DNA of 64,000 bases from Candidatus Omnitrophota bacterium (GCA_015233115.1 JADFYJ010000004.1:70528-134527), one strand, 5' to 3'. Counted from the first letter of the stretch, positions 1,067 to 44,066 are shown. Notes: generated from the letters alone by a model not told the origin. A program made the numbers and translations.

Positions 1067-1212
1067 GTAGGGGCGATCTCCTGATCGCCCGTGTCAAAAT
1101 TGTCGTTTTGTTACAAAAAATTAAATACATAAATAAACCTAAGAGCGAATATCATTTAAAAACTATAAAAAAACGATACTTTTGTAACGGGCGATCAGGA
1201 GATCGCCCCTAC
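1067..1212. mobile_element. MITE-like unit bounded by inverted 25-nt palindromic repeats (gtaggggcgatctcctgatcgcccg / cgggcgatcaggagatcgcccctac) with an AT-rich core containing aaaaacgatacttttgt
   Basis: The terminal repeats are at 1067..1091 and 1188..1212 in inverted orientation. The unit at 10177..10283 has the same internal motif. Confidence 0.55.
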
Positions 1213-1279
1213 AACAACGACGATAAAATCAGCAAACAACAAATGGGTAACTCACCTAACACAACCTATCACCTATAGC

Positions 1280-2935
1280 CTATTGCCTGTTTAATTGCGG
1301 TCCGGCTTTCACTAATTCCTTAGCTTTCGGATGATCTAAAAAGTTTTCGAAATGGGCTATGAACATTTCGGCTAATTGTTTTGTGGTCGTGTCGTAATTC
1401 ACTTTATCTTCCCAGCAATTGCGAGGGTTTAAAACAGCGGAATCAATGCCGGCAATTTTTTTAGGGATGCGCAGGTTAAAGACCGGCATTACGTCAAATT
1501 CGCCGGAGTCGATCGCTTTATCCAAAGAACCGTCTAATACCGCGTCGATAATGGTACGGGTATCCTTAATCGAAATGCGATGACCCATGCCGTATTTTCC
1601 GCCGATCCAACCAGTATTGACTAAATAAGCCGAAGAACCATGCTTGAGCATTTTTTCATTCAGGATCTCAGCGTATTTAATCGGATGCAGTGATAAAAAC
1701 GCCTGGCCAAAACACGCGGAAAACGCGGACGTTGGCTCCATGATTCCTAACTCAGTCCCTGCCACTTTCGCGGTATATCCGCTTAAAAAGTGATACATGG
1801 CCTGTTCATTGGTCAATTTAGATACCGGAGGCATAATACCAAACGCGTCGCAGGTTAAAAATACGATCTTAGTCGGATGCCCGCCTTTGGATACCGGTTT
1901 TACAATATTGGCGATATGATCAATCGGATAAGACGCGCGAGTGTTTTCGGTTTTTTTATCAGACGCGAAATCAAAATTTCCGTCCTTATCTACGACAACA
2001 TTTTCCAATAAGGCGTTGCGGCGTATCGCATGATAAATATCCGGCTCTTTTTCTTCAGACAAGTTAATGCATTTAGCGTAACAGCCGCCTTCAAAATTAA
2101 ATACCCCTTCATCGTCCCAGCCATGCTCGTCATCGCCGATCAGCAAACGTTTTGGATCTGCCGACAAGGTCGTCTTCCCTGTTCCGGAAAGCCCAAAGAA
2201 TAACGCGGTATCCCCATTTTTTCCCATATTCGCGGAACAATGGAATGAGCCGATTCCTTTGAGCGGCAGAAAATAATTCATCATGGAGAAAATGCCTTTT
2301 TTGATTTCTCCGCCATACCAGGTGCCGCCGATCACAGTGGTGCGTTCTTTAATATTAAACGCGATAAAAACCGGCGAGCGCATATGATGTTTTTCATAAT
2401 CCGGACAATTGATCTTGCAGGCATTCATGACTGTCCAATCCGGTTTAAAATCTTTAAGTTCCGCTTCCGTCGGACGAATAAACATGTTTTTAAAAAAATG
2501 CGCCATCCAGGCCACTTCGGTAATCAACCGCACGCCTAAACGGGTACTGGGATTAGTCCCGCAAAAACCATCAATAACATATAAACGTTTGCCGCTTAAT
2601 TGACGGGTGGACAACCCTTTCACATGTTCCCAATTTTCCAAAGACATTCTTTTATTATCGGAGTTATTCGAAATAGGCAATGCCGCTCCTGATCCCCACC
2701 AAACAAAATCGCGGGAAGTTTCTTCTTCGACTATATATTTATCTTTAGGGGAACGGCCAGTAAATTTTCCGGTATCGACGAGAACAGCGCCGCTTTTAGA
2801 GATGACTGCTTTTTCCGCGCCTTCTAATTTAGGATCAGTTTCATGTTTATAAAGTTCTTCATAAGAAAGATTATGAAAGATTTCTTTGGCTCCGTGAATA
2901 CCTAAATTTTCTAAAGCAGCGTTAATATTGTCCAT
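1280..2935 (-). CDS. pckA: Phosphoenolpyruvate carboxykinase (ATP)
   Basis: 551 aa with [12 protein letters not shown]-loop kinase motif and overall ATP-PEPCK motif layout (e.g. [10 protein letters not shown]). The ORF is intact. Confidence 0.93.
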
Positions 2936-2947
2936 TTGTCCTCCGAT

Positions 2948-3523
2948 TTATATTTCTACTTTGGGAATATTTCCTAAAACTAGATCGATCATGATGCGTT
3001 TTTCGCCTTCGATCTCGAAGCTCATTTCACATTTTTCCGTCTGATCGACCGGATATAAGACCCCTTCAAAAATCTCATTCTTAAAACTCATAAAATGAGA
3101 CATTTCCATATTCATATATCCCAATTGGCAAAGTCCAGACTTAAAATTTCCAGCGATTAGATTGCATAAAGTCCCGCACGCGTCCAGTAATTCATTTTCA
3201 TCGGTTTCGTCAACAGGGTAACCCAATTTATGCAATAACTTCGAAAGATATTCAACTTCAACATATAAAACCATGGTACCAACAGGAATATCTTTATTGG
3301 CCTGTTCTTTACTCACATAAAAATTAATCACAGAGATAAACGTGGTCGTATTAAATTTCTCAAAACTGGTAATCCTCATCCGGCGCATGAATTCGACAAT
3401 CGGGCGGTTCTGTACTATTGGGGCAGTAGATAAATGTATTCCGGCCCGGCGCTCCAGAATCCGTTTCAAGATTTCTGACGCCACTTTCGCCTGAATTGAG
3501 AGTTCGGTTATTTGATTAGACAA
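2948..3523 (-). CDS. CheC/CheX-family chemotaxis phosphatase-like protein
   Basis: 191 aa with the motif DACGTLCNLIAGNF, resembling the CheC/CheX/FliY consensus (D/E-x3-E-x2-N-x3-G). It is followed immediately by a CheY-like receiver gene. Confidence 0.5.
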   Translation of the reverse strand: MSNQITELSIQAKVASEILKRILERRAGIHLSTAPIVQNRPIVEFMRRMRITSFEKFNTTTFISVINFYVSKEQANKDIPVGTMVLYVEVEYLSKLLHKLGYPVDETDENELLDACGTLCNLIAGNFKSGLCQLGYMNMEMSHFMSFKNEIFEGVLYPVDQTEKCEMSFEIEGEKRIMIDLVLGNIPKVEI

Positions 3524-3527
3524 TAAT

Positions 3528-3911
3528 TTAAACCTGTTTGACGTACGGCAATATTATGGCTATCAGATTGTCGGGCTTAAAAGGTTTGACTACGTACGCG
3601 ACTAATTTGGGGTTAACCATTTTAGCTTGTTTCTGACTCTCTTCGGAACTCGAAGCAGATACCATAACAATCGGGATGTCAGCAATCAGAGGAACTTTTT
3701 GCACAGATTTCATAAACTCAATCCCATCAATAATCGGCATCTGCCAATCCAACAGGATCAAACAGATCTCTGTGGCGTATTGATTGAGGAGTTTGAAACC
3801 CTCTTGACCGTCTGGGGCCTGAATTATTTCACAGGTAATGCCTGCTTTTTCGATCGTCCGAGTCAAAAGCCTGCGGTCCATCATTGAATCATCTATGATC
3901 AAAATTTTCAT
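3528..3911 (-). CDS. Response regulator, single receiver (CheY-like) domain
   Basis: 127 aa. MKILIIDDS, LLDWQMP and a conserved Lys region (VVKPF) give the classic receiver fold positions D-D-K. Confidence 0.85.
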   Translation of the reverse strand: MKILIIDDSMMDRRLLTRTIEKAGITCEIIQAPDGQEGFKLLNQYATEICLILLDWQMPIIDGIEFMKSVQKVPLIADIPIVMVSASSSEESQKQAKMVNPKLVAYVVKPFKPDNLIAIILPYVKQV

Positions 3912-3912
3912 A

Positions 3913-4626
3913 TTATTTTTTTGCAGTAACGATCAAACCTTTATATGCTTTTGGTAAAGTTGTCAAAGCTTCTTCAGCATTTTTTTTGCTGTCAAAATGG
4001 CCGACATAGATGCGATACCATGTGCCTTTATCTCCCAAATCTTTCGCAATAACATATGGCTCAAAATTCTTTTTCTTTAAATCTGCCACTACAGAATCAG
4101 CGCGGGATTGGTCTTTAAACGATGCGACCTGTATTGAAAAAGCCGAACCAATAGTCGATTTTAAAGAAGTAGATTTTTTCGATAATTTCGCCTTCGCAGA
4201 TTTTATAACTTTGGTTTCTTTCACAGCAGGCGCCATCACTTCAGTGGATGGTTCTACTGGAACCGTGGTGGATAAAGGAGCAACTGTGGTAGCTGATCCG
4301 GTTGTTGTCCCGGTTGCTGACGCGACAGGCGCGACGGCTTGATTTCCGGTTTTTGATGTTCCAGGAGGCAGCGCTTTTTCTTGTTCACCATTTTCGTAAT
4401 ATTGATATTGAACATCCGTCGGATTGGTTTGCTGTTGAGCCATAACTTCTTCAATTTTTGCTTTACGCGCATGCTCTTGATGTTTACTATAACCAAATAT
4501 AACCGCAAAAATAACGATGAGAAATAACAAAAACATCCAAACTTTATTATTCTTACCTGAATTTTTTTCTGACACAAACAATCCACCTTCTGATGATCCT
4601 TTAAACATCCCTTTGCCCTCAGCCAT
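3913..4626 (-). CDS. SPOR-domain membrane protein (septal peptidoglycan binding)
   Basis: One N-terminal TM helix, a low-complexity S/T/P linker, and a C-terminal segment SIQVASFKDQSRADSVVADLKKKNFEPYVIAKDLGDKGTWYRIYVGHF typical of SPOR domains. Confidence 0.7.
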   Translation of the reverse strand: MAEGKGMFKGSSEGGLFVSEKNSGKNNKVWMFLLFLIVIFAVIFGYSKHQEHARKAKIEEVMAQQQTNPTDVQYQYYENGEQEKALPPGTSKTGNQAVAPVASATGTTTGSATTVAPLSTTVPVEPSTEVMAPAVKETKVIKSAKAKLSKKSTSLKSTIGSAFSIQVASFKDQSRADSVVADLKKKNFEPYVIAKDLGDKGTWYRIYVGHFDSKKNAEEALTTLPKAYKGLIVTAKK

Positions 4627-4729
4627 TTTCTCATCTCCTTATAATTTATAAATTAAAATGATAATTTTATTTTATCTGAATTAAGTTCTTTAGCAATAAA
4701 AACAACTTAAAAAAAGAATATTTTTATTA

Positions 4730-4813
4730 CGGGCGATCAGGTGATCGCCCCTACGACGGCGAAAATCAAATCGAGAATAATGCTTTTTGTAGGGGCGATC
4801 ACCTGATCGCCCG
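4730..4813. repeat. Pair of 25-nt palindromic repeats in tail-to-tail arrangement (cgggcgatcaggtgatcgcccctac ... gtaggggcgatcacctgatcgcccg) separated by about 34 nt
   Basis: Direct reading shows this. The spacer variant (GGTG/CACC instead of GGAG/CTCC) keeps symmetry between the two copies. Confidence 0.75.
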
Positions 4814-4841
4814 CTTCAAAATTAATATTTTTCAATAAAAT

Positions 4842-5498
4842 TTAATTCACTTCGTCTTCTAATAATTCTAACAAATTTTTAGCTTCTTCGACAATATCCG
4901 GTGAAACTATTTTTAAAGTTTCCATATCTTTTTTGAACGAACGCAACGAATTAATCATTTTACGGACAGCGACGACATGACGCTGATTACGATCTTCTTC
5001 CGGGTCAACCTTTTTCCGCTCTTTCATCATGGCTGTTAAATCTTTTCGGACTTCAGCGGCTTCCTTGCCTTTTTCAAAAACCGACTTACGCAATTGCTCA
5101 TAATCGTTTTTCGTTAATTCTTTCTTGCCTTTAGCGGTCCGCAAAACATTAATCTCTTCATAACCCGGAATATTATTAGCTTCCCGGTCTTCAAAAAAAG
5201 AGTCAGCCAAATATTGAGGTTCATCATTCTCGATAAACATATACGATTTGACTAATTTTAAAGCCAAAGATTTATTAAAACCTAATTCTTTCTCGACGTA
5301 CTCCTCAAATTTATTGTGTCCCCAGCCCACATACATTTTGTCTTCCCAAATCGAGAATAAATGACGCGCAAAATTAAGCCAAGAGGTCTTAAAATTTTTC
5401 GCAAAATCCAAGGTCTGTTGACGGATTTCATCACCGAGCATATCCGTGTGACTAGCCAAAGATTTTTTTTTACTGATGGATAAATCAACAACAGGCAT
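4842..5498 (-). CDS. Hypothetical protein
   Basis: The ORF is 245 aa. I take the probable start at MPVVDLS, which avoids the octamer repeat at 5518..5560. There are no motifs I recognise. It is charged and helical-looking. Confidence 0.5.
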   Translation of the reverse strand: MPVVDLSISKKKSLASHTDMLGDEIRQQTLDFAKNFKTSWLNFARHLFSIWEDKMYVGWGHNKFEEYVEKELGFNKSLALKLVKSYMFIENDEPQYLADSFFEDREANNIPGYEEINVLRTAKGKKELTKNDYEQLRKSVFEKGKEAAEVRKDLTAMMKERKKVDPEEDRNQRHVVAVRKMINSLRSFKKDMETLKIVSPDIVEEAKNLLELLEDEVN

Positions 5499-5517
5499 AC
5501 GATCCTTTCTATAAAAA

Positions 5518-5560
5518 CGTAACAATGTGACATTGTGACAGTGTGACAGTGTGACAATGA
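5518..5560. repeat. GTGACAGT-family octamer tandem repeat
   Basis: Direct reading gives gtaacaatgtgacattgtgacagtgtgacagtgtgacaatg. Confidence 0.8.
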
Positions 5561-5586
5561 AAAAACAAAAAAGCGTCAATTTTGGC

Positions 5587-5643
5587 GCGGGCGATCCTGC
5601 CTTCGTTAAAACTACGGCAAGGCAAGCAGGAGATCGCCCCTAC
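5587..5643. repeat. Palindromic repeat interrupted by a 30-nt insert that itself forms a hairpin (GCCTT...AAGGC)
   Basis: Direct reading gives cgggcgatc[ctgccttcgttaaaactacggcaaggcaagc]aggagatcgcccctac. Confidence 0.7.
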
Positions 5644-6578
5644 AGCATTTTTACATATACTTTTGGTAATATTTTTTTAGCAACCGCCATTTGTATTCCG
5701 CCGGGAATTTGAACTTGCATATTGGCCATACCAAAGGCTACTCCAAAACGTAAGCTTTCTATAAATGAATTTCCCGAAATATGATTACCAATAAAACCAG
5801 CCACACAACTATCGCCACAGCCTACATCATTGACAAGTTTAAAATTAACACGAGCAGCTGCCTCGAAAAAATTCTCACCATCAAAAGCCACAACACCTTC
5901 TGGACCGCGGGAAATGATAACCCGCCTCGCTCCCATTTGATAAAATTCTTTTAATGCTTTTTTAATCCGATTTATTGAGGAAAGCTTATAACCCAAAACT
6001 TCTTCTGCTTCACTTTGATTGGGCTTAATAAAATCCGGACCAGCTTTTAATCCCTCAATCAAAGGTTGACCACTGGTGTCCAAAAAACAACAACATTGAT
6101 TTTGATGTGCTAAACGAATCAGCTCTCCATATGCAGAATGTGTAAGACCATTGGCATTCCGGCCAGACAAAACCACGCAAGTTTGAGCACCCAATAAAAT
6201 TTTATATTTTTTTAAAAAAGCCTTCCACTCTGAAAATAAAACCAACGGACCAGGTTCTAAAACTCTAGTCCGTTGTCCATTATTATCAATAAAAGTATAA
6301 TTACTTCTCGTTTGACCGTGGATAAGATAAAACTCATTAGGAATTTTCTCAACTTCCAATAACTGCTTCAAGTGTTCACCGGAATTCCCTCCAGCGAAAC
6401 CAATTGCCCTCACACTTAAAAGAACAAATTGCCTCAATGCCCGGCTGACATTCACACCTTTTCCGCCGGCAACGATACTGACTTCTCCGGCCAGAGATTC
6501 ATATCCAGGGCGCAGGTGATCGACAGATATAAACTTATCTAACGCCGGGTTTAATGTGACAGTTACGATATTCGACAC
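5640..6578 (-). CDS. PfkB-family sugar kinase, 1-phosphofructokinase/tagatose-6-P kinase-like
   Basis: 312 aa. N-terminal VTLNPALD and GGKGVNV, plus C-terminal DVGCGDSCVAGF (the PfkB anion-hole/ATP motif). Confidence 0.8.
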   Translation of the reverse strand: MSNIVTVTLNPALDKFISVDHLRPGYESLAGEVSIVAGGKGVNVSRALRQFVLLSVRAIGFAGGNSGEHLKQLLEVEKIPNEFYLIHGQTRSNYTFIDNNGQRTRVLEPGPLVLFSEWKAFLKKYKILLGAQTCVVLSGRNANGLTHSAYGELIRLAHQNQCCCFLDTSGQPLIEGLKAGPDFIKPNQSEAEEVLGYKLSSINRIKKALKEFYQMGARRVIISRGPEGVVAFDGENFFEAAARVNFKLVNDVGCGDSCVAGFIGNHISGNSFIESLRFGVAFGMANMQVQIPGGIQMAVAKKILPKVYVKML

Positions 6579-6590
6579 GAATTAAAATGT

Positions 6591-6670
6591 TGTTGGTTGA
6601 TGGTTTTTAGTTGTTGGTTGTTAAAAATTATTCATTTTTTCCAAAAACCACAAACCACAAACCAAAAACC
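6591..6670. repeat. Inverted pair of low-complexity repeat blocks (GTTGGTTG... / ...CCACAAACCACAAACC) bracketing an AT-rich spacer
   Basis: Direct reading shows this. The right arm is the reverse complement of the left arm's GGTTTGTGG units. Confidence 0.7.
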
Positions 6671-6686
6671 ATTATTTATATTTTCT

Positions 6687-7211
6687 TTACTCTGCTTTTT
6701 CAGATTTTTTCTTTAAGAAAGTTTTCATTTCGATCCAAGTTTTTTTACCGATCACGCCATCTGCGGTCAAGCCATAATCTTTTTGAAAACTTTTAATAGC
6801 TTTTCTGGTGCTTTTACCAAGTTTACCATCAATTGCGCCATCATAATACCCGGCCGCTTTTAACGCGCGCTGGACATCTTTCGGATCAGCGTCAACATGA
6901 AGAACATCTTTCTGATCGCCTTCGGATGATTTTGATTTTGAACTTTCTTTATCTTTGATCACCGGTTCTTCAACTGGCCGGCTAGCTTCACTGTTCGAAC
7001 CATTTTGACGAGTTAAATCTTCGACCTGATATTTTAAACTGTCTATGGTCTGGGTCTGTTCTTCTAAACTGCGTTCCAAATGAGCAACCTTAATTTCTAA
7101 ATTATTCACCGTTGTTGGCGCTTTTGTTCCCGCGCATCCGCCTAATGCCAAAAGCATCAGCGAAAACGAAAATAGGTTTAACGGCCCGAATTTGTTCTCT
7201 GCTCTTTTCAT
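6687..7211 (-). CDS. Lipoprotein with C-terminal peptidoglycan-binding (PG_binding_1-like) domain
   Basis: Signal peptide with lipobox LALGGCAG. The C-terminal segment LKAAGYYDGAIDGKLGKSTRKAIKSFQKDYGLTADGVIGKKTW matches the PG-binding repeat. Confidence 0.7.
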   Translation of the reverse strand: MKRAENKFGPLNLFSFSLMLLALGGCAGTKAPTTVNNLEIKVAHLERSLEEQTQTIDSLKYQVEDLTRQNGSNSEASRPVEEPVIKDKESSKSKSSEGDQKDVLHVDADPKDVQRALKAAGYYDGAIDGKLGKSTRKAIKSFQKDYGLTADGVIGKKTWIEMKTFLKKKSEKAE

Positions 7212-7873
7212 CGACTTTCCCCCTCTTCAATTACGTTTATTTTCATTAGGTTATTTATAAATTGTCCGTTTTTTTCCGGATATTTTAACGCGAATATTTT
7301 AGCGCTTTCTAAATAATCATCAACTACATCAATTGTATAATCAAAACCCGGTTTAATCACAGGGATTCCGCCCAATTTCAATTTTTCTTTTGTACCTACC
7401 ATATGGAGCGTTCCCACATAGTTGACTTTTGACGGATCAACTTTAAATACCACATTCGTATTTTCTTCCGCCATGGCCGCGCCCACCGGAATAGCAACTT
7501 TTATTATTCTATACGCTCCAGCCGGTAGTTCAATAAAAAAATAGCCGGGTTCTACGGTTTCTGAATTCCAGCCCAAAGGATTCTGCTTGGACTTATCTCC
7601 GACGATTAAAACATGCACTTCTGACGGGTTGCTCCTATTAATGAAAACCAGGCGCACATAAGTGGTTTTTAATATGCCTTCAAAATCCGTTTTCCCGAAT
7701 ACAAAACCTTTCAATAAAAGTTTTGGCGCATAGCTAGTATGAGCAACAGAAATACCGCTCGCAGAAGCAAGCGGACTTCGTGACACAGTTGAAACAGGTG
7801 TTTTAGCTTTCGGAACGACAGAACATCCGCTTAAGCCAAACGCCAACCCTAAAATAATAATTAACAACTTCAT
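7208..7873 (-). CDS. Hypothetical lipoprotein
   Basis: Signal peptide with lipobox (LSGCSV). No recognisable catalytic motif. It overlaps the downstream gene by 4 nt (operon). Confidence 0.6.
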   Translation of the reverse strand: MKLLIIILGLAFGLSGCSVVPKAKTPVSTVSRSPLASASGISVAHTSYAPKLLLKGFVFGKTDFEGILKTTYVRLVFINRSNPSEVHVLIVGDKSKQNPLGWNSETVEPGYFFIELPAGAYRIIKVAIPVGAAMAEENTNVVFKVDPSKVNYVGTLHMVGTKEKLKLGGIPVIKPGFDYTIDVVDDYLESAKIFALKYPEKNGQFINNLMKINVIEEGESR

Positions 7874-7982
7874 AATGATAATATTTCCTACCCATTGGTT
7901 GTGTAGTTTAGCAAACTTTGTGGGTGTATGGCAAGAGAATTGAAATAAATTTTAAAAGTGATATGCTCATAATAATAATAAC

Positions 7983-8020
7983 AAAAAAAACGGAAGGGAG
8001 AAAAGGCCTTCCGCTCTTTC
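7983..8020 (-). terminator. Rho-independent terminator for the 8040..8393 gene
   Basis: On the minus strand: 7-bp stem CGGAAGG/CCTTCCG, 9-nt loop, followed by T8 (plus strand shows A8 before the hairpin). Confidence 0.6.
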
Positions 8021-8039
8021 AGTCTGCAAACAGCACAGA

Positions 8040-8393
8040 CTATTTAGTCAAAACTACTGACTTTTTGGGGGAGAAATATTTTGCTTTCCAATAAATACCT
8101 ATTTTCAAGGTATGACAGAACCGCACTTCAATTAACATCCGATTGTGGGTCAAATAAAAGAGTCCCTTCACCTTAAAACGGAAACTCTCTACCATCCGTT
8201 CATTATCCACACATTTTTTAATGAAAATTTCGGGAGCATTTAATTCAGAAGCCTGCTCAACATGACGAGCCAAATAAATGAAACTTTTGCGGATTTTTGT
8301 TACTGACCGTTTGTCTTCGCTTTCCTGACAAACAGAAAAGTTTTTTAAGCTCTTATCCTGATTTATCGATCTTCTGAATTTTAACTCTTTCAT
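8040..8393 (-). CDS. Hypothetical protein in an AT-rich island (orphan)
   Basis: The ORF is 126 aa. I take the start at MKELKF. No recognisable motifs. It is flanked by a 167-bp non-coding gap downstream and about 180 bp upstream, and is followed by a clean terminator. Confidence 0.35.
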   Translation of the reverse strand: MKELKFRRSINQDKSLKNFSVCQESEDKRSVTKIRKSFIYLARHVEQASELNAPEIFIKKCVDNERMVESFRFKVKGLFYLTHNRMLIEVRFCHTLKIGIYWKAKYFSPKKSVVLTK

Positions 8394-8580
8394 GTGAACC
8401 CCCTTGTCATCCTCGATCAAAGTATAACATTCACTATGAAGACGACAAGGTGGATAAAGGGTCCTTCGAGAAACCGTTTTCTTGGAAAGTCAGCGACGGG
8501 ATTACTTTAATATGGGTGAAAGATGGGTAATATTTATTTTAATTGGTATCTTTTAATATATTTTTAATTGTTAATAAAAA

Positions 8581-8620
8581 CGCCTATTGCCTATTGCCTA
8601 TTGCCTATCGCCTATTGGCC
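8581..8620. repeat. Heptamer tandem repeat CCTATTG x5
   Basis: Direct reading shows this. It overlaps the 3' end of the plsY ORF. The same family occurs at 1261..1290 and 23148..23200. Confidence 0.8.
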
Positions 8621-9239
8621 TCTTTTTATAAAAACCAATCGGCACGCGGGGTTCTTTCCCTTGTATTAGACGTTGGATATTTGGCTTATGCCGGATAATC
8701 ACAAAAGCCCCAAATACCACAGACATGCCGATTAACAAGGGGTGCTGATGGGTTAAAACGATGGCTAAAGGAAAAGCCAAACCAGCTAAAATCGAAGATA
8801 ATGAAACAAAACTGGTTAAAATGAAGCAAATCAGCCAGGTTTCTACTGTAATCATTAAAGCCAGCCTGATCCCTACTAATTTTACAGCTAAAGCGATCAG
8901 CACGCCTAAACTGGTGGCAATACCTTTGCCGCCTTTAAATTTCAAAAATATCGTCCAATTATGCCCACAAACCGCGGCTAAACTCAATGCGATCAATTGC
9001 CAAACATCATTACAGGAAAACACTGAAGACAATAAAATAACCGCAATCACACCTTTTAAAATATCCAAAATCAAAACAATGCTTCCCGGCACTTTTCCTA
9101 ACACGCGGAACACATTGGTCGCGCCCACATTCCCTGAACCATGCTGGCGAATATCAATCCCTTTATAAAATTTACCAAAAATATAAGCAGTCGGAATGGA
9201 TCCGATTAAATAACTTAAAAATATGGCTGCAAAAATCAT
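8598..9239 (-). CDS. plsY: Glycerol-3-phosphate acyltransferase PlsY
   Basis: The N-terminus MIFAAIFLSYLIGSIPTAYIFGK...GSGNVGATNVFRVLG is the PlsY signature. The last ~10 codons are encoded by the CCTATTG repeat. Confidence 0.85.
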   Translation of the reverse strand: MIFAAIFLSYLIGSIPTAYIFGKFYKGIDIRQHGSGNVGATNVFRVLGKVPGSIVLILDILKGVIAVILLSSVFSCNDVWQLIALSLAAVCGHNWTIFLKFKGGKGIATSLGVLIALAVKLVGIRLALMITVETWLICFILTSFVSLSSILAGLAFPLAIVLTHQHPLLIGMSVVFGAFVIIRHKPNIQRLIQGKEPRVPIGFYKKRPIGDRQ

Positions 9240-9799
9240 AACCCCTCCCCTACATTCAACATTTTAATTCCTTTGCGCATATAATCAATGGTAGAGCCAA
9301 TGATCAAACCTAAAGCAACATACCAAAATACGGATAAAAACGGCCACTGCAATAAAACCGCCAAAACCGACATGACTTCCGCGAATGTCGTAGCCTTGCC
9401 CCACTTGGTTGGCTTGATCTCAAACACACCATGATAAATACTGACAATGGTCACGCCGAGTATTAAAATTAAATCACGCCCAATCGCCCACACCACCAGC
9501 CACGCCGGAAATTTTACTAAAGGAAGATGATCATTAATAAAATATAAAAACACAAAAGCAAAAATCAAAAGAATTTTATCCGCCAAAGGGTCAAGGATCG
9601 CGCCAGCTTTAGTTTTTTGTTTCCAACGTCGCGCCACATAACCATCGACCAAGTCAGAAATAACCGCAAACAAAAATATACCTAACGCGACATTCAAATT
9701 ATATTCACGTCCCGGACCGTAATCCAAAAGCGCGGCAATAAAAAAAGGCACAGCCAAGATTCGGCAAACGGTGATTTTATTAGCTAAGGTCATGCCCAT
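9236..9799 (-). CDS. pgsA: CDP-diacylglycerol--glycerol-3-phosphate 3-phosphatidyltransferase (CDP-alcohol phosphatidyltransferase family)
   Basis: DLVDGYVARRW...GAILDPLADK is the D-G-x-AR...G...D-x3-D motif. It overlaps plsY by 4 nt. Confidence 0.85.
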   Translation of the reverse strand: MGMTLANKITVCRILAVPFFIAALLDYGPGREYNLNVALGIFLFAVISDLVDGYVARRWKQKTKAGAILDPLADKILLIFAFVFLYFINDHLPLVKFPAWLVVWAIGRDLILILGVTIVSIYHGVFEIKPTKWGKATTFAEVMSVLAVLLQWPFLSVFWYVALGLIIGSTIDYMRKGIKMLNVGEGL

Positions 9800-9800
9800 A

Positions 9801-10139
9801 TCACTTAACCCATTCCAATTTTACATGGTGCAACGGGCATTCTTGGATATTTGGGGCATAGCGTTTGCCGTCTACGGGGCAATATTTTACTTTCACTTCG
9901 CCGTTAAACGAATCAGCCACTTCTTTGACAGCAGATTGTGCTTCAGGATTAGTGCGTAGATTTTTTTCTAAATTTCGCATTTCTTGCGCAGACACAGGTT
10001 TTCCTGCCACAGCGGATGCCACAGCCGTGAGATCTTTTTCAGAGGCGTGGACGTTGTTTAACGGGGAAACAGGCTTACCCGTGGTTGCGCAGCCGCAGAG
10101 ACAAAATACAATTAAAACAAATAATGATTTATTTTTCAT
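9801..10139 (-). CDS. Small lipoprotein, hypothetical
   Basis: I take the start at MKNKSLFVLIVFCLCGC (lipobox). The longer ORF call reads through the palindromic repeat at 10177..10201 and is rejected. The C-terminus has CPVDGKRY...CPLHH, a possible metal-binding site. Confidence 0.5.
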   Translation of the reverse strand: MKNKSLFVLIVFCLCGCATTGKPVSPLNNVHASEKDLTAVASAVAGKPVSAQEMRNLEKNLRTNPEAQSAVKEVADSFNGEVKVKYCPVDGKRYAPNIQECPLHHVKLEWVK

Positions 10140-10176
10140 ACTTTTATATTTTTTAAAAAATATTAGTTTATTTGTT

Positions 10177-10283
10177 GTAGGGGCGATCTCCCGATCGCCC
10201 GTAAACAAAATATTCGCTTTGCCATTATCGAAAAAAAGAAAAAACGATACTTTTGTCGCGGGCGATCAGGAGATCGCCCCTAC
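10177..10283. mobile_element. MITE-like unit (107 bp) bounded by inverted 25-nt palindromic repeats
   Basis: The repeats are gtaggggcgatctcccgatcgcccg (10177..10201) and cgggcgatcaggagatcgcccctac (10259..10283). The internal region carries attcgcttt and aaaaacgatacttttgt, shared with other copies. Confidence 0.55.
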
Positions 10284-10289
10284 GACCAT

Positions 10290-10340
10290 CGTCAATCTTG
10301 TCTTCTCTCTTCTCTCTTCTATCGTCCATCGTCTATCGTC
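10290..10340. repeat. Low-complexity tandem repeats (CTCTTCT / ATCGTCT units)
   Basis: Direct reading gives tcttctctcttctctcttctatcgtccatcgtctatcgtctat. Confidence 0.7.
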
Positions 10341-10924
10341 TATTTTATAATCCTGATCCTATCCAACGGCCAATAAATAAATGAGGCTGGGCCGACGATG
10401 TTTTCTACTGGAACATAACCCCAATAACGGCTGTCATGACTGGACTGGCTGTTATCTCCGAGAACAAAAACATGGCCGGATGGAACTTTGACCGCGTTGC
10501 CATTCACGCCATATTGACCCATATCGTAGTAAAAAGTTTTACGGATACGCGGTTCGTCGATAATTTGACCATTGATATAAATAGCGCCATACTTGATTTC
10601 TACTGTTTCACCTTCGAACGCGATCAGACGTTTGATAAAATCACGTTTCGGATCTTCAGGAAATTTAAAAACAATGATATCCCCGCGGTTTAATTTTCCA
10701 TAACCGTGAATGCGCGTTTTAGTAAACGGAATAAGCGGCCCATAGCTCATTTTATTGACCATTAACCGGTCATTAATCAATAACGTCGGGATCATCGAGC
10801 CGCTGGGAATTTTAAACGCCTGGATAAAAAAAGTACGAATAAAAAGCGCCAAAATTAACGCAATGACCGCCGAATCAAACCATTCTTTGCCTTCGGTTTT
10901 AAACCATTGTCTCAAATTGTTCAT
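10340..10924 (-). CDS. lepB: Signal peptidase I
   Basis: SGSMIPTL (catalytic Ser box), GDNSQSSHDSRYWG (box E) and a KR box. Confidence 0.9.
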   Translation of the reverse strand: MNNLRQWFKTEGKEWFDSAVIALILALFIRTFFIQAFKIPSGSMIPTLLINDRLMVNKMSYGPLIPFTKTRIHGYGKLNRGDIIVFKFPEDPKRDFIKRLIAFEGETVEIKYGAIYINGQIIDEPRIRKTFYYDMGQYGVNGNAVKVPSGHVFVLGDNSQSSHDSRYWGYVPVENIVGPASFIYWPLDRIRIIK

Positions 10925-10933
10925 ATCAGTCCT

Positions 10934-12742
10934 TTATAATTTTAATACAGCCAAAAAAGCTTCTTGGGGGATTTCTACGTTTCCGACTTGTTTGAGTTTT
11001 TTCTTTCCTTCTTTTTGTTTCTCCCACAATTTGCGTTTGCGTGAAATATCGCCGCCGTAACATTTGGCGGTTACATCTTTACCAGATGATTTGACCCTGG
11101 CACTAGAAATAATGCGGCCGTCGCAAGTAGCCTGAATTCGTACCTCATATAATTGTTGGGGGATTAGATCTTTTAATTTAGTTACTAACGCTAAACCTTT
11201 TTCATACGCGCTGGTCTTATGCACCAAACAAGAAAAGGCGTCGCACACTTTATCATTGATCATAATATCCAATTTAGAAATCTGCGCCGGCTGATAGCCT
11301 TCAAATTTATAATCGATCGAACCATACCCGCGCGTCAACGATTTGATCTTATCATTAAAATCCACAATAACTTCTGACAGAGGAACATCAAACAATATCC
11401 GCATGCGATCCGAAACATATTCGCTGGTGACAAAATTGCCACGTTTCTTTTTAGCCAATTCCATGACAGAATCCATAAATTCAACCGGCGTCATAATCGT
11501 TACCCGAAGATAAGGCTCTTCGATTGATTTTATATTCGACGAGTCAGGAAGATCGTTGGGACTTTCAATAATCCTTTGTTCCCCATTATTATCAATCACG
11601 CGGCACTGGACGTTTGGTGTCGTCAAAATCAAATTTAAATCATATTCACGCTGAAGCCGTTCCTGCACGATATCCATATGCAGCAACCCTAAAAATCCGC
11701 AGCGAAACCCATTCCCAAAAGATTGGGATGTTTCCGGTTCATAGACGAGACTAGGATCGCTCAAACGCAATTTTTCAATGGCTTCACGCAAAGGCATAAA
11801 ATCTTTCGGATTAACCGGATAAACCCCGCAAAACACCATCGGATTCAAATGACGGTAACCCTCTAATGCCGCGGCAGCCGGACGTTCCGTTTCCGTGATG
11901 GTGTCTCCGACACGCACATTCCTAGGCTCATGAACATTGCAGGTAATATACCCGACTTCTCCGGCGGTTAATTCTTTGACTTTCACATCTTCAGGCTTGC
12001 AAATACCGACTTCTTCCACATTGTGATCTTTACCCATATTCATCATGCGGATACGCATACCTGCTCGAACAGTTCCATTCATCACCCGGATATAAACAAT
12101 GACGCCTTTATAGATGTCGTATTTCATATCAAAAATCAAAGCTTGTAAAGGGGCATCATCGACGCCTGTAGGCGCCGGTAAAAACTCGACAATCTTCTCA
12201 AACAAAGTATCAATGCCGATGCCTTCTTTAGCAGAAACCAGCTGGATATGCGTATCATCAAATCCGAATGCTTCCATGACCTGCAATTTCGCATGGTCAA
12301 TATCGACGCTGGCTACGTCGATCTTATTTAACACCGGCAATATTTCGAGATTGTTATCAATCGCCAAATAATAGTTCGCGACAGTCTGCGATTCCACACC
12401 CTGGGTGGCATCGACTAATAACAGGGCGCCTTCGCACGCTTTGAGTGATTTTTCCACTTCATAAGAAAAATCCACATGCCCGGGCGTATCGATTAAATTA
12501 AAAAGATATGTTTGGCCGTCTTTCGCTTTGTAATTAATGCAGACCGCCGAGGCTTTGATGGTGATCCCGCGTTCCCGCTCAAGATCCATGTCATCTAAGA
12601 GCTGATTTTTAAATTTACGTTCATCAATCGCTCCGGTAAACAATAACAGACGATCTGCCAAAGTCGATTTACCATGGTCGATATGAGCGATAATAGAGAA
12701 ATTGCGAATGAGGGATTTATCGTGCATAAATTTTAATTTCAA
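10934..12742 (-). CDS. lepA: Elongation factor 4 (LepA)
   Basis: 602 aa with GTPase motifs AHIDHGKST, DTPGHVDF and NKID, and the characteristic LepA C-terminal domain. Confidence 0.95.
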   Translation of the reverse strand: MKLKFMHDKSLIRNFSIIAHIDHGKSTLADRLLLFTGAIDERKFKNQLLDDMDLERERGITIKASAVCINYKAKDGQTYLFNLIDTPGHVDFSYEVEKSLKACEGALLLVDATQGVESQTVANYYLAIDNNLEILPVLNKIDVASVDIDHAKLQVMEAFGFDDTHIQLVSAKEGIGIDTLFEKIVEFLPAPTGVDDAPLQALIFDMKYDIYKGVIVYIRVMNGTVRAGMRIRMMNMGKDHNVEEVGICKPEDVKVKELTAGEVGYITCNVHEPRNVRVGDTITETERPAAAALEGYRHLNPMVFCGVYPVNPKDFMPLREAIEKLRLSDPSLVYEPETSQSFGNGFRCGFLGLLHMDIVQERLQREYDLNLILTTPNVQCRVIDNNGEQRIIESPNDLPDSSNIKSIEEPYLRVTIMTPVEFMDSVMELAKKKRGNFVTSEYVSDRMRILFDVPLSEVIVDFNDKIKSLTRGYGSIDYKFEGYQPAQISKLDIMINDKVCDAFSCLVHKTSAYEKGLALVTKLKDLIPQQLYEVRIQATCDGRIISSARVKSSGKDVTAKCYGGDISRKRKLWEKQKEGKKKLKQVGNVEIPQEAFLAVLKL

Positions 12743-12758
12743 AATAATATTTTTTTTC

Positions 12759-12783
12759 GTAGGGGCGATCTCCTGATCGCCCG
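12759..12783. repeat. Solo copy of the 25-nt palindromic repeat gtaggggcgatctcctgatcgcccg
   Basis: Direct reading shows this. It lies between the lepA start and the cmk stop. Confidence 0.8.
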
Positions 12784-12800
12784 TAACAAAATAATCGCTT

Positions 12801-13469
12801 TTATAAGCCGATATATCTTCTTAATGTTTCTATAACTTCATCAATAGTCAATCTCGACGAATCAATATACACCGCGTCAGGGGCTTGCTTTAAAGGGCCT
12901 ACTTTCCGGGTAAAATCTTTTTGGTCGCGCTCTTCGATTTCCAGACGTAATTTATTAATATCGACGTCCTGGCCTTTTTCTTTTAATTCTTTATAACGCC
13001 TTTGCGTGCGTTCTTCGACAGAGGCATCCATATAAAATTTGTGGGTCGCACTTGGAAATACGACTGTTGTCACATCCCGGCCTTCCGCGACAATACTGCG
13101 GCGTCCGGCAATCTGCCTTTGCCATTCCACTAGAATTTCCCGCACCTGGCCTGCCCGCGCAATATAAAACGTATTGTTTGTCACGTCCAGAGTCCGGATA
13201 TCTTTACTCACATCCTGACCGTCCATGACAACCATAACTCCGGCGGAAACAGCTTTTAAATCCAAAATAGTACGTTTAGCCAATGCCGCCAAAGCATCTT
13301 CATCTTCCAAATTAATTTGTTCCCGCATGGCTTTTAAAGTAATAGCCCGGTACATCGCTCCTGTATCTAAAAAAGCAAATCCCAGCTCTGCAGCCAAACG
13401 TTTCGCGACCGTGCTTTTTCCAGCACCGGCAGGGCCGTCTATGGCAATAACGTAAATGATATTAGGCAT
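12801..13469 (-). CDS. cmk: Cytidylate kinase
   Basis: IAIDGPAGAGKSTVAK P-loop with cytidylate kinase layout. Confidence 0.9.
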   Translation of the reverse strand: MPNIIYVIAIDGPAGAGKSTVAKRLAAELGFAFLDTGAMYRAITLKAMREQINLEDEDALAALAKRTILDLKAVSAGVMVVMDGQDVSKDIRTLDVTNNTFYIARAGQVREILVEWQRQIAGRRSIVAEGRDVTTVVFPSATHKFYMDASVEERTQRRYKELKEKGQDVDINKLRLEIEERDQKDFTRKVGPLKQAPDAVYIDSSRLTIDEVIETLRRYIGL

Positions 13470-13470
13470 A

Positions 13471-13560
13471 CAGGTTGTTGGTTGTTGGTTGTTGGTTGTT
13501 GGTTGTTGGTTGTTGGTTGTTGGTTATTGATTTTAAATCTTTTTATGCAGTTGTTAACCA
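13471..13560. repeat. GGTTGTT heptamer tandem repeat (about 8 units) with a downstream inverted partner (aaccaaaaactaaaaacc)
   Basis: Direct reading shows this. Confidence 0.8.
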
Positions 13561-13590
13561 AAAACTAAAAACCATAAACCTTTAAATTTG

Positions 13591-14448
13591 CTAATTTAAC
13601 TTTTCTCTTTTCGCTTTTGCTTTTTCAAACTGCGCCAATAATATTTTTTCGTCTTTGGCAATAATAGCTTGGCGGACAATGGATAATTGTTTGACTATGT
13701 CATCAACGGCTTTGATAATATATTTTCCGTTGGATAAACAAATATCGGCCCACATCTGCGGCGAAGAAGCAGCGATACGGGTTGAATCTTTTAAACCATT
13801 GGCCGCATATTGTAACATCTCATCCGGTACCGCGCCCATCAAACTAAAGGCGGCCATATGCGGTAAGTGACTGATATAGGCCAAAACCTGGTCATGCTGT
13901 TCAGGTTCCATAGTTAAAACTTCCGTGCCCAGTTTGGTCCAAAATAATTTCACTTTTTCGAATGCCGTATGATGAGTGGTTTTGATCGGCGTTAATATAC
14001 ACTTGGCTCCCGTAAATAAACTATCCACGGCGTTTTCTACGCCCCGTTTTTCCGATCCTGCCAAAGGATGGGAGCCGACAAAATTATCAGGAAAAGCCAA
14101 CAGTTTAGCTGCCATATCAACGATATCTGATTTCGTGCTGCCAATATCCGTAATGTAACAATTCTTGCGTAAATACGGATTGATCTTGGGTAAAAATTGA
14201 ATAATCGTTTCAACCGGAGTCGCCAGAATTATCAAATCCGTGTTGCGAATTGCTTTAGCCAGGTCGGTTGTGGCCACGTCGACAGCGCCAATCTTCATAG
14301 CCTTAATCAAAGAAGATTGCTGAAAAGATAAACCGACGACTTCTTTGGCTAATTTGTGTTTCTTGATCGCCAGCCCCAGCGAGCCGCCCATCATACCAAC
14401 ACCAATAATGGTGATTTGGCGGAAAGGCCTGTGAGAAGGTAATATCAT
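13591..14448 (-). CDS. tyrA: Prephenate dehydrogenase
   Basis: Rossmann ITIIGVGMMGGSLGLAI. Context is an aromatic amino-acid cluster. Confidence 0.85.
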   Translation of the reverse strand: MILPSHRPFRQITIIGVGMMGGSLGLAIKKHKLAKEVVGLSFQQSSLIKAMKIGAVDVATTDLAKAIRNTDLIILATPVETIIQFLPKINPYLRKNCYITDIGSTKSDIVDMAAKLLAFPDNFVGSHPLAGSEKRGVENAVDSLFTGAKCILTPIKTTHHTAFEKVKLFWTKLGTEVLTMEPEQHDQVLAYISHLPHMAAFSLMGAVPDEMLQYAANGLKDSTRIAASSPQMWADICLSNGKYIIKAVDDIVKQLSIVRQAIIAKDEKILLAQFEKAKAKREKLN

Positions 14449-14459
14449 AGTTTGTCCTG

Positions 14460-17775: not shown

Positions 17776-17956
17776 CGGGAGGTCAGGAGACCTCCCCTAC
17801 AACAGCATTAATCATTTTTAAACGACATTTCGCGCTACTCGCAGGTGCTTCCAACACTACGCGGACATTACGTCCTTGGTCGCGCTGCTCGCAGGTGCTT
17901 CCAGCACTACGCGGACATTACGTCCTTGGTCGTAGGGGCGATCTCCCGATCGCCCG
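17776..17956. repeat. Composite repeat: variant palindrome cgggaggtcaggagacctcccctac, two exact 50-bp tandem units, and the canonical palindrome gtaggggcgatctcccgatcgcccg
   Basis: Tandem units are at 17831..17880 and 17881..17930 (2 mismatches). The variant palindrome at 17776..17800 carries compensatory changes GCGATC>GAGGTC and GATCGC>GACCTC. Confidence 0.8.
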
Positions 17957-17958
17957 CA

Positions 17959-20898: not shown

Positions 20899-20908
20899 GT
20901 CACTTTTT

Positions 20909-35050: not shown

Positions 35051-35152
35051 AAAATAGGCTAAACCATGAAGGCTAAAGGTGATAAATTATAGGCAAAAAT
35101 TAAAAGGACAAACAAAAAACCTAGAATTTTAATTTATAAATTCTTTATAGTT

Positions 35153-35177
35153 CGGGCGATCGGGAGATCGCCCCTAC
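35153..35177. repeat. Solo palindromic repeat cgggcgatcgggagatcgcccctac
   Basis: Direct reading shows this. It is adjacent to CATGCTA repeats at 35190..35215. Confidence 0.8.
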
Positions 35178-39884: not shown

Positions 39885-39925
39885 AAGCATGTAGCATATA
39901 GCATGTTGCATGTAGCAAGAAAATG
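39885..39925. repeat. CATGTAGCA/TAGCATG tandem repeats
   Basis: Direct reading gives catgtagcatatagcatgttgcatgtagcaag. Confidence 0.7.
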
Positions 39926-42332: not shown

Positions 42333-43114
42333 ATATGCGCTGCCGTTAATAATTGCTTGGTATATGGATGCTGTGGCACATTAAATATGTTTTCCGTTGA
42401 ATCTATTTCTACAACTTTTCCTTGAAACATAACAGCCACCCGATCACTAATCTTACGCGCCACGCGCATGTTATGGGTGATAAAAACATAAGTTAAATTG
42501 AATTTCCGGCGTAAATCCGTTAATAAATCCAGAATTTGTTTTTGGATCAATACGTCTAACGCGGAAACAGCTTCATCTAAAATTAAAATTTTGGGACTGG
42601 GAACCAAGGCGCGAGCAATCGCGATACGCTGTCTTTCGCCGCCGCTGAATTCATGCGGATATCGATCCAGCATATCATATGACAACCCGGTAGCTTTAAG
42701 TAATTCCGAAACTCTGGCATCTTTTTTAGATGACACTCTAAATAAATCCGGCCTGAGGCCCATTGGTTCATATAAAATCTGGCGGATCGTATACCGCGGG
42801 TCCAAACTGCTGTGAGGATCCTGAAACACTATTTGCATTGATTGACGTAAAGCTAAAAGAGCTTTTCCTCGTGACGCAATATCCTCTCCGTTAAAAATAA
42901 TTTTTCCTTCATCACATGGATATAACCCGATCATCATCCGTACCAAAGTCGTTTTACCGCATCCAGATTCACCGACAATGCTTAAACTCTCTCCGCCCAT
43001 AACAGACAAATTGACCCCATCAACAGCCTTAACCATATGAACCTGATGGCTGAATAGCCCGGGTTTAGAAGAGAAATATTTTTTAACATAATGAAGCTGT
43101 AGAATAGTATCCAT
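42329..43114 (-). CDS. oppF: Oligopeptide/dipeptide ABC transporter ATP-binding protein (OppF-like)
   Basis: Walker A GESGCGKTT, signature LSGGERQR, Walker B ILILDEAVSALD. Confidence 0.85.
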   Translation of the reverse strand: MDTILQLHYVKKYFSSKPGLFSHQVHMVKAVDGVNLSVMGGESLSIVGESGCGKTTLVRMMIGLYPCDEGKIIFNGEDIASRGKALLALRQSMQIVFQDPHSSLDPRYTIRQILYEPMGLRPDLFRVSSKKDARVSELLKATGLSYDMLDRYPHEFSGGERQRIAIARALVPSPKILILDEAVSALDVLIQKQILDLLTDLRRKFNLTYVFITHNMRVARKISDRVAVMFQGKVVEIDSTENIFNVPQHPYTKQLLTAAHI

Positions 43115-43133
43115 TTTTTCTATCCTAATATAT

Positions 43134-43901
43134 TTAAAGGGTTGCTTCGATTAATTTTTTCGTATAATCATCTTTAGGAAAATTCATAATATGGCCGCAT
43201 GCGCCTTGTTCAACTACTTCCCCTTGAGACAAAACAACAATATCATCGGCCATATATTGCGCCATGGCCAAATCATGCGTAATCAAGAGCATAGATAAAC
43301 CCAGCTCCTTTTGAAGCTTTTTAAACAATTCCATAATCTTGGCCTGCAAGGTCACATCCAGACTGCTAGTCGGTTCATCCGCAATCAAAAGTTTAGGACC
43401 AGCGGCAATGGCTTGAGCGATCATGGCGCGCTGGCGCATTCCTCCGCTTAATTGATGCGGATAACTACGCAAAATCCGCTCCGGATCAGGTAAACCAACG
43501 AGATCTAACAATTCTTGCATCCTTTTTATCCGGGTTGGATGATCCAATTGAGTATGATAACGCAACACTTCATCAATCTGAAAACCGATTTGAAAAAGCG
43601 GGTTAAACGCGTGCAATGGCTCTTGAAAAACCATGCCAATATCTTTCCCGCGGACTAAACGCATTTGATGTTCCGCAAGACTTAATAAATTGACTCCGGA
43701 TAAAATAATTTTTCCGCTTTGAATTTTTAAGGCAGGATTAAGCAGCTGTAAAATCGAAAGACCAATAGTCGTCTTGCCGCTGCCGGAACCGCCCACCAGT
43801 GCCGTTACTTTTTCAGCCTTAACATCAAAGCCTAAATTGTTGATGAGCAAACGATTAGCAACGGAGACATTTAGGTTTTGGATATGTAATATAGGTTTCA
43901 T
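43134..43901 (-). CDS. oppD: Oligopeptide/dipeptide ABC transporter ATP-binding protein (OppD-like)
   Basis: Walker A GGSGSGKTT, signature LSGGMRQR, Walker B LLIADEPTSSLD. Confidence 0.85.
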   Translation of the reverse strand: MKPILHIQNLNVSVANRLLINNLGFDVKAEKVTALVGGSGSGKTTIGLSILQLLNPALKIQSGKIILSGVNLLSLAEHQMRLVRGKDIGMVFQEPLHAFNPLFQIGFQIDEVLRYHTQLDHPTRIKRMQELLDLVGLPDPERILRSYPHQLSGGMRQRAMIAQAIAAGPKLLIADEPTSSLDVTLQAKIMELFKKLQKELGLSMLLITHDLAMAQYMADDIVVLSQGEVVEQGACGHIMNFPKDDYTKKLIEATL

Positions 43902-43921
43902 AATTTAATAAATGATTTGTC

Positions 43922-44066
43922 GTAGGGGCGATCTCCCGATCGCCCGCTTACAAGTTATTCGCTTTTTAATTCGATCAAAAAAACAAAAAATAAAAAACCT
44001 AAAAAAACCTGAAATGTTAAATTTATAAATCTTTAATAGTGCGGGCGATCAGGAGATCGCCCCTAC
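43922..44066. mobile_element. MITE-like unit (145 bp) bounded by inverted palindromic repeats, inserted between oppC and oppD
   Basis: Terminal repeats are gtaggggcgatctcccgatcgcccg (43922..43946) and cgggcgatcaggagatcgcccctac (44042..44066). It carries the internal attcgcttt motif. Confidence 0.55.

Follow-up and report, generated by a model that had tools for sequence, protein, structure and literature searches.

A stretch of 64,000 nt from an uncultivated Candidatus Omnitrophota bacterium (GCA_015233115.1, JADFYJ010000004.1:70528-134527; called here the window) carries 13 copies of a short hairpin-forming repeat at eight intergenic sites between positions 1067 and 44066. With a probability that we put at about three in four, the copies are repetitive extragenic palindromic (REP) elements of the GTAG-tagged superfamily, present singly or as inverted pairs in the manner of bacterial interspersed mosaic elements (BIMEs) and of REP doublets forming hairpins (REPINs), and we infer that they were spread via single-stranded DNA (ssDNA) by an enzyme of the REP-associated tyrosine transposase (RAYT) kind. 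Work on GTAG REPs and REPINs has concentrated almost wholly on Proteobacteria, and the window shows the same architecture in an Omnitrophota genome. The novelty is the host phylum, in which REPs are not described in the literature compared, and the presence of the identical 25-mer in distant phyla.

The 25-mer GTAGGGGCGATCTCCTGATCGCCCG was found 11 times in the window with at most one mismatch and 0 times in 100 shuffles, and a search with the core pattern GGGCGATC-N4-GATCGCCC led to the identical sites. A scan of all GTAGG sites in the window added only a stem variant at 17776-17800 on the minus strand and a split copy. A preliminary description of this DNA had counted at least 13 copies; 13 are found, and 0 in shuffles. 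Their density is about 0.2 per kb over the window and is uneven, with 0 copies in 44067-64000. The REP core has 68-72% G+C, against 41% for the window, and carries two GATC sites.

Read GTAG-first, the unit consists of (T)GTY, GTAG, an 8-bp stem with the arm GGGCGATC, a 4-nt loop, GATCGCCC, a final G and a 3' tail. The GTAG head is unpaired and lies directly 5' of the stem in 13/13 copies. The 25-mer had been taken for a perfect palindrome, which it is not: pairing is limited to 8+8 nt, the final G is unpaired like the GTAG, and the loops (TCCT in seven copies, TCCC in four and ACCT in two) are all asymmetric. Folded as ssDNA, the monomer hairpin has a free energy (dG) of -9.9 kcal/mol, against -3.1 for shuffles. 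In an alignment of the copies, columns G16-G22 are invariant and the tail is conserved. The usual tail (tail A, approximately NNACAAAAKTATCGYTTTT) is A/T-rich, about 20 nt long, and follows CCCG in 11 of the 13 copies, whether solo or paired. The internal motifs noted earlier are indeed shared, but attcgcttt and aaaaacgatacttttgt are this one 3' tail read on opposite strands. Similarly, the repeats do constitute one dispersed family, as had been argued against a set of independent REP sites, but the family is itself a REP, and the common sequence is only the REP's own 3' tail. An alternative tail B of about 45 nt, ACTATWAAAGAWTTTATAAATTWAAMATTYYAGGTTTTTT, is common to two copies only (35177 and 44066, both minus strand), where it spans 35105-35152 and 43994-44041; it suggests a second sub-lineage of the element.

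In the variant at 17776-17800, GTAGGGGAGGTCTCCTGACCTCCCG, pair 4 has changed from C-G to A-T and pair 6 from A-T to G-C, and the 8-bp stem is still perfect. The double compensatory change reported for this copy is therefore real. Selection on the hairpin had been proposed from it, and it is indeed the hairpin, and not the primary sequence, that is conserved. A host function is not needed for this. The variant would be accounted for if only copies with an intact stem stay copy-competent, as the cleavage by the group-3 RAYT enzyme TnpA-REP indicates (Corneloup et al., 2021, PMC8266576); templated correction within the hairpin is an alternative mutational route, and compensatory change is expected equally from selection at the level of copying or from such correction.

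The copies are arranged as three head-to-head dimers (HH, GTAG outward), two tail-to-tail dimers (TT, GTAG inward) and three single copies (Table 1), with spacers of 96, 57 and 95 nt in the HH dimers and 34 and 131 nt in the TT dimers. The three HH dimers and one TT dimer fold as single long hairpins, with dG from -37.5 to -43.7 kcal/mol and z-scores from -8.7 to -11.9. Both arms of the TT dimer 4730/4789 carry the private loop ACCT, which hints that the arms of a dimer are not evolving independently.

Are the units of 107-146 bp miniature inverted-repeat transposable elements (MITEs)? The 25-mers would then be terminal inverted repeats (TIRs) for the DDE transposase of a parent insertion sequence (IS), and the solo copies decayed halves. 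The three units do resemble MITEs, as they are small and non-coding, have inverted identical ends and similar sizes (146, 107 and 145 bp), and are lineage-specific insertions in spacers. The preliminary description had recognized inverted units, tail-to-tail pairs and solos, all of which are present, but what it called MITE-like units with TIRs are HH dimers, in which two REP-plus-tail units face each other. No target-site duplication is found at any of the three, the duplications it had suggested looking for, and the flanks carry no direct repeat; the GTY/RAC bases that adjoin the ends belong to the repeat, because they are mutually inverted (GTY|GTAG ... CTAC|RAC), and the flanks beyond them are unrelated. 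The supposed TIR is itself a self-folding hairpin with an asymmetric GTAG head, and with its tail it also occurs alone and, at 34 and 131 nt, in the reverse, GTAG-inward pairing. The three units have no conserved centre in common, and this lack of conservation at the level of the unit, which had been named as the sign of a REP-type element, favours a REP over a MITE. No transposase gene is present in the window and no related IS was found. A MITE origin is hardly credible on this evidence.

That the copies are insertions is indicated by three syntenic relatives. The nearest, locus L097 (GCA_015233195.1), has a LepA 92% identical to that of the window and genes with 77-81% DNA identity; it covers window positions 2950-15500, in which the sites 12759, 10177-10283, 5588-5643 and 4730-4813 are comparable. 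In loci L104 and L105 LepA is about 80% identical; three sites are covered in L104, which is without the PfkB gene, and four in L105, scpB|pheA being included in both. L097 has no REP at 4/4 comparable sites, and its spacers there measure 0-120 bp. No GTAG hairpin occurs in the 21.8 kb of either L104 or L105, and the junction at each covered site is overlapping or at most 30 bp. The gap between cmk and lepA, which holds REP 12759 in the window, is at most 9 bp in all three relatives, and in all three the S26 signal peptidase gene and its downstream neighbour abut or overlap. The PfkB gene and the next gene are separated by 11 bp in L097 and by 30 bp in L105, the TT dimer 4730-4813 is absent from the orthologous L097 spacer, and scpB overlaps pheA by 20-30 nt in L104 and L105. 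The three relatives are compact and REP-free wherever a comparison can be made, which makes the REP-bearing state the derived one and the copies insertions in the lineage of the window. The presence/absence comparison of related genomes that had been proposed for this family thus gives the result expected of mobile copies. L097 does carry a symmetric palindrome of differing sequence, GTAGCGGAAGG...CCTTCCGCTAC, after a small gene (L097:7168-7196); it is single-copy in 12 kb and probably an ordinary terminator.

In places the insertions have pushed apart genes that formerly overlapped. The outgroups polarize insertion into junctions that had overlapped or abutted (e.g. scpB|pheA and cmk|lepA), with stop codons and a C-terminus rewritten and the opp operon split. 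Coding overlap of a copy or its tail is limited to the stop codon at 5640-5642 and to the last scpB codons. The 3' end of scpB, with its last approximately 10 codons and the TGA stop (17957-17990; region to 17995), lies in REP-tail-like sequence. The unit at 43922-44066 had been described as an intra-operon insertion between oppC and oppD, and it is indeed flanked by genes for an OppC-type permease and an OppD-type ATPase. The split copy does contain an insert that forms a hairpin, as stated before, but the insert is 31 nt and not 30, and the span of the copy (5588-5643) is 1 nt shorter than was given. The insert lengthens the hairpin. The 50-bp tandem duplication described within the 17776..17956 pair is present as reported; its unit is G+C-rich, with small internal hairpins. 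Neither the 31-nt loop insert nor the duplicated unit of 50 bp represents a further repeat family, as each is unique in the window.

Table 1. Copies of the GTAG REP in the window and the tandem duplication between two of them (positions in the window; ssDNA folds, dG in kcal/mol)
Feature	Span	Strand and copies	Loops, tails and spacing	Context	Fold
HH dimer, 146 bp	1067..1212	+ copy 1067-1091; - copy 1188-1212	both loops TCCT; tails inward	between PEPCK stop (1280) and Memo-like gene (likely start 1010)	one long ssDNA hairpin, dG -43.7, z -11.9
TT dimer	4730..4813	- copy 4730-4754; + copy 4789-4813	34 nt between; tails outward to ~4705 and ~4835		
Single split REP	5588..5643	-	31-nt self-complementary insert 5596-5626 between loop and 3' arm	upstream PfkB-family kinase gene (5640-6578) stops on the TAG of the GTAG head (5642-5640)	
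HH dimer, 107 bp	10177..10283	+ copy 10177-10201; - copy 10259-10283	loop TCCC (+); loop TCCT (-)	signal peptidase gene / small hypothetical gene	dG -37.9, z -8.7
Single REP with 3' tail	12759..12805	+; REP 12759-12783	tail to ~12805	tail end 1 nt from cmk stop codon, 31 nt upstream of lepA start	
TT dimer	17776..17956	- copy 17776-17800; + copy 17932-17956	- copy stem GGGAGGTC/GACCTCCC; + copy canonical, loop TCCC; 131 nt between	tail of + copy overlaps last codons and TGA stop of scpB	
Tandem duplication, 50 bp x 2.1, 96% identity	17830-17932			between arms of TT dimer 17776..17956	
Single REP	35105..35177	-; REP 35153-35177	loop TCCC; tail B ~35105-35152	between ETF-alpha/ferredoxin-domain gene and B12-binding radical SAM gene	
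HH dimer, 145 bp	43922..44066	+ copy 43922-43946; - copy 44042-44066	loop TCCC, tail A (+); loop TCCT, tail B (-)	20 nt past oppC-like (permease) stop, 20 nt ahead of oppD-like (ATPase) start	dG -37.5, z -9.5

The genes of the window lie almost all on the minus strand, with strongly negative GC skew, and those that neighbour the REPs are housekeeping genes. Each copy is flanked by two co-directional genes, in most cases 2-67 nt past the stop codon of the upstream one. This placement, together with the stable G+C-rich stem and the two GATC sites of the core, is what one might expect of immobile hairpins evolved by the host (terminators, mRNA stabilizers, or dimeric or Dam-related protein sites) and kept alike by selection or gene conversion. 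The 25-mers, however, are identical or one base apart at eight sites, comparable sites are empty in the three relatives, and the same sequence is found in unrelated phyla. Copies also stand in both orientations relative to transcription. Identity as intrinsic terminators was ruled out on that ground and because the T-run of the tail begins 14-18 nt past the stem, with none directly after it, and no REP was called in a scan of the window for intrinsic terminators (18 against 21.6 expected, no excess). A function as GATC or Dam sites was ruled out by the loss of GATC in the window variant and in sister families (GATG, GCTC, GACT and GACA). A search of the window at Rfam gathering thresholds gave only RNase P RNA and two tRNAs, and no family for the REPs. 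An origin as host hairpins is unlikely, with long odds against it. A secondary host function acquired after insertion is nevertheless fully possible and belongs to the reading preferred here.

How do the copies compare with known systems? In GTAG REPs the tetranucleotide stands beside a stem of 6-13 bp with a short loop, and the elements occur singly or as dimers at distances of 20-100 bp, with GTAG outside in HH dimers and inside in TT dimers; the spacer tends towards conservation in HH dimers and towards variation in TT dimers (Di Nocera, De Gregorio and Rocco, 2013, PMC3733652). The same study reports sub-families whose stem changes are complementary, some families with large self-complementary loops, TAG stop codons supplied by GTAG and a preference for positions after unidirectional open reading frames (ORFs). 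The window copies are alike in each of these main features: an unpaired 5' GTAG, a G+C-rich stem with a short loop, singles and HH/TT dimers, compensatory stem sub-families, positions after unidirectional ORFs, a TAG stop from GTAG, and an occasional long structured loop. Stenotrophomonas maltophilia SMAG (GTAG-6 to -9) is an example of the superfamily. They differ in their host, at 41% G+C, and in a further 3' tail, conserved and A/T-rich, that runs to about 20 nt. The consensus GTAGGGGCGATC-N4-GATCGCCCG is not found in the text and supplements of PMC3733652, a comparison that leaves the family consensus sequences of its Figure 1 to one side.

REPs and REPINs are tied to single-copy RAYT genes flanked by REPs (Nunvar et al., 2010, PMC2817692; Bertels and Rainey). 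Like the REPINs of Pseudomonas fluorescens and enterobacteria, the HH units are two inverted REPs about 100 bp apart that form one long hairpin; they are extragenic and multi-copy, have a spacer less conserved than the REPs, and are absent from viral contigs. Unlike in those systems, TT dimers and singles equal HH dimers in frequency here, the host phylum is distant from Gammaproteobacteria, and no cognate RAYT was found in the window. Closest in form are the substrates of group-3 REPtrons, REP-Sm of S. maltophilia and REP-Mb of Marinomonas: the REP is 23 nt there and 25 nt here, and both have a perfect 8-bp palindrome with a loop of 3-4 nt behind GTAG. TnpA-REP of this group acts on such short REPs, requires GTAG in order to cleave and is severely impaired by a mismatch in the stem (PMC8266576). 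No conserved CT cleavage dinucleotide is evident beside the window copies, however; the 5' flank is GTY. The unit between oppC and oppD recalls the BIMEs of E. coli and Salmonella, in which REPs of alternating orientation lie inside operons, although enterobacterial REPs are imperfect, with a bulge and fixed linker motifs, and the stems here are perfect and the tails A/T-rich. Enterobacterial REPs stabilize upstream mRNA. A relation to HIP1 (highly iterated palindrome 1) or another cyanobacterial small dispersed repeat, which GCGATCGC-like cores and the heptamer arrays had suggested, was ruled out, as there is no GCGATCGC in the window and LepA, 100% identical to MBF0478474.1 from a Candidatus Omnitrophota metagenome-assembled genome (MAG), places the host in that phylum.

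The copies probably spread through ssDNA by means of a RAYT-type (TnpA-REP) HUH/Y1 enzyme, whose gene would lie in another part of the genome or have since been lost. Such an enzyme would recognize the folded hairpin together with GTAG and cut beside the hairpin. Recognition of this kind would account for the perfect stems, for the lack of target-site duplications, and for a G+C-rich core that is kept unchanged in a genome of 41% G+C, where the tail has drifted towards the composition of the host. Once inserted, the copies would be co-transcribed with the flanking genes, and as RNA or DNA hairpins they would probably protect the 3' end of the upstream message or uncouple cistrons such as oppC and oppD, as in enterobacterial REPs.

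Several points weigh against RAYT-driven spread of GTAG REPs. No Y1_Tnp/RAYT gene was detected in the 64-kb window by Pfam on most of the larger ORFs and local hidden Markov models (HMMs) on all six-frame ORFs, nor in the 96 REP loci of 8 kb from other genomes described below by phmmer, a motif scan and two HMMs. The two local HMMs were built from 240 PF01797 proteins retrieved with two Y1_Tnp seeds, and the phmmer search with an approximate E. coli RAYT query and the scan for the YxxxNP motif gave nothing. ORFs flanked on both sides by REPs in other genomes are ordinary genes by Pfam, with no Y1_Tnp. The flanks of the Y1_Tnp genes inspected carry GGGTCAGGC or GGGGACAG repeats and not this REP. 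The only RAYTs to which REPINs have been linked to date are those of groups 2/3, mostly gammaproteobacterial. The boundaries of the insertions are not definable to the base, the nearest relative being only 77-81% identical in DNA, and a function of the REPs at the RNA level is purely conjectural. The RAYT named in the preliminary description is the right lead, but neither the window nor the 96 loci yielded one. This negative result is weak, because 96 stretches of 8 kb would, most of the time, fail to include a gene present once among hundreds of REPs.

The metagenomic Y1_Tnp (PF01797) genes inspected, annotated 'RayT' or 'transposase', are preceded by GGGTCAGGC or by tandem GGGGACAG/GGGGACGA motifs (L098:4850-5000, L100:4850-5000, L101:4850-5000 and L102:3900-4000). 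They fit the TIRYT class, which has a GGGGWSAS motif (PMC3733652), and are unrelated to the window REP.

Could the repeats be REP-like and mobile and yet have a driver other than a RAYT? Another HUH enzyme, a TnpA of the IS200/IS605 type acting in trans, or replication with template switching at hairpins could be responsible, and the GTAGGGGCGA superfamily would then be a separate system that resembles GTAG hairpins only by convergence. In 97 sequence stretches with about 200 copies in all, none of the copies has a Y1_Tnp close by, the phyla of the hosts (Omnitrophota, Actinomycetota, Bacillota and Chloroflexota) are outside the usual range of REPIN-associated group 2/3 RAYTs, and the private loop of the TT dimer 4730/4789 looks as if one arm had templated the other. 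Yet the sample of loci is one in which a single RAYT gene would easily escape notice, GTAG with a perfect 8-bp stem is exactly the known substrate of group-3 TnpA-REP, and GTAG REPs with REPtrons are already on record in Chloroflexi and in the Planctomycetes-Verrucomicrobia-Chlamydiae (PVC) group (PMC3733652). A driver of another kind is accordingly judged improbable, and a RAYT-kind enzyme acting on GTAG REPs is preferred.

The repeat is not confined to the window. When species-representative genomes were scanned for exact matches to GTAGGGGCGATC-N4-GATCGCCCG, at least 96 loci (L001-L096) were obtained, taken as 8 kb each. Hosts among the matches listed have 51-71% G+C. They comprise Gordonibacter (isolates, with many copies and HH dimers) and other Eggerthellaceae, several MAGs of Clostridia, Christensenellales and Oscillospiraceae, many MAGs of Anaerolineae and other Chloroflexota, one Cloacimonadota MAG, and Candidatus Electrothrix. 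Gordonibacter sp. Marseille-P2775 (LT827128.1) is an example of a complete genome rich in the repeat. The exact 25-mer of the window is the commonest form among these matches, with at least 30 copies in at least 22 sources, and these include Gordonibacter isolates and several Clostridia MAGs; in Anaerolineae the common stem carries CTTG, CTCG or CAAG loops. In the listed loci the head GTAGGGGCG is common to many inner-stem variants (GATC, GATG, GCTC, GACT, GAGT, GACA and others), several stem sub-families coexist in one genome, and 206 of 271 GTAGGGG sites form a hairpin. Among 49 distinct 25-mers, pre-filtered for at most one stem mismatch, double (compensatory) changes at stem pairs 6, 7 and 8 number 8, 11 and 17, and the outer five pairs are almost invariant. 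The 3' tail is lineage-specific: in Gordonibacter it is a second G+C-rich hairpin, TTCCGGCGAAGCCGGAA, and in the window it is A/T-rich.

There were 0 exact matches in 2.9 million viral contigs, a search that did not extend to plasmids. A metagenome scan with the REP-plus-tail pattern gave one irrelevant match without GTAG, and a literature search by sequence string gave no relevant paper. The 'GTAGGGGCGA' REP superfamily is thus widespread, with a core that is constant across hosts of 41-70% G+C and tails adapted to the host, and it offers a convenient system for asking what the mobilizing enzyme recognizes and whether such systems cross phylum boundaries at all. Identity of the 25-mer across distant phyla sits uneasily with the picture of REPIN-RAYT systems as vertically inherited and mostly proteobacterial. 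An identical 25-nt REP that multiplies in at least five phyla and is absent from the closest sampled relatives of the window's genome might signify a REP-plus-enzyme system able to pass from phylum to phylum and to invade genomes previously free of it, or else an enzyme that is not a RAYT; we offer this tentatively and consider it rather doubtful. If true, it would contradict the view of REPIN-RAYT as vertically inherited, near-symbiotic and mainly proteobacterial.

The repeats also have consequences for annotation. Longest-ORF starts run into REP dimers in the Memo-like gene (1011-1130) and in the small gene after the signal peptidase gene (10140-10208), and a plus-strand ORF of 153 aa (17730-18191) spans a TT dimer. 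These three ORF calls are likely to be artefacts of the repeats, which would explain why spurious ORFs are called, and start codons placed too far out, at the spacers concerned.

A second kind of repeat is present in the same spacers. About 35 short tandem arrays of 7-8-nt units occur in the 64 kb, in most intergenic spacers and often beside REPs; examples are TTGTGACC, ACAGTGTG, GGTTGTT x8, AGTAACAG x8.6, GCCTATT and AGCATGT, at positions such as 139-170, 5522-5559, 8582-8617, 13473-13529, 20856-20904, 39886-39917, 51678-51746 and 54742-54777. They resemble the cyanobacterial short tandemly repeated repetitive (STRR) sequences. Because the syntenic relatives L097 and L104 have essentially no such arrays, the spacers of this lineage have been expanded with two kinds of repeat. 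The REP-free region 44067-64000 also has spacers with heptamer arrays; it holds oppB/oppA, tpiA, pgk and a sugar-nucleotide / O-antigen-type polysaccharide cluster, and has positive AT skew. Among the RNA genes, class A RNase P RNA (20906-21238), tRNA-Val(CAC) (22606-22679) and tRNA-Met(CAT) (22824-22897) are all on the minus strand, and an ORF at 21226-21627 overlaps the 5' end of the RNase P RNA, its called start being probably over-extended.

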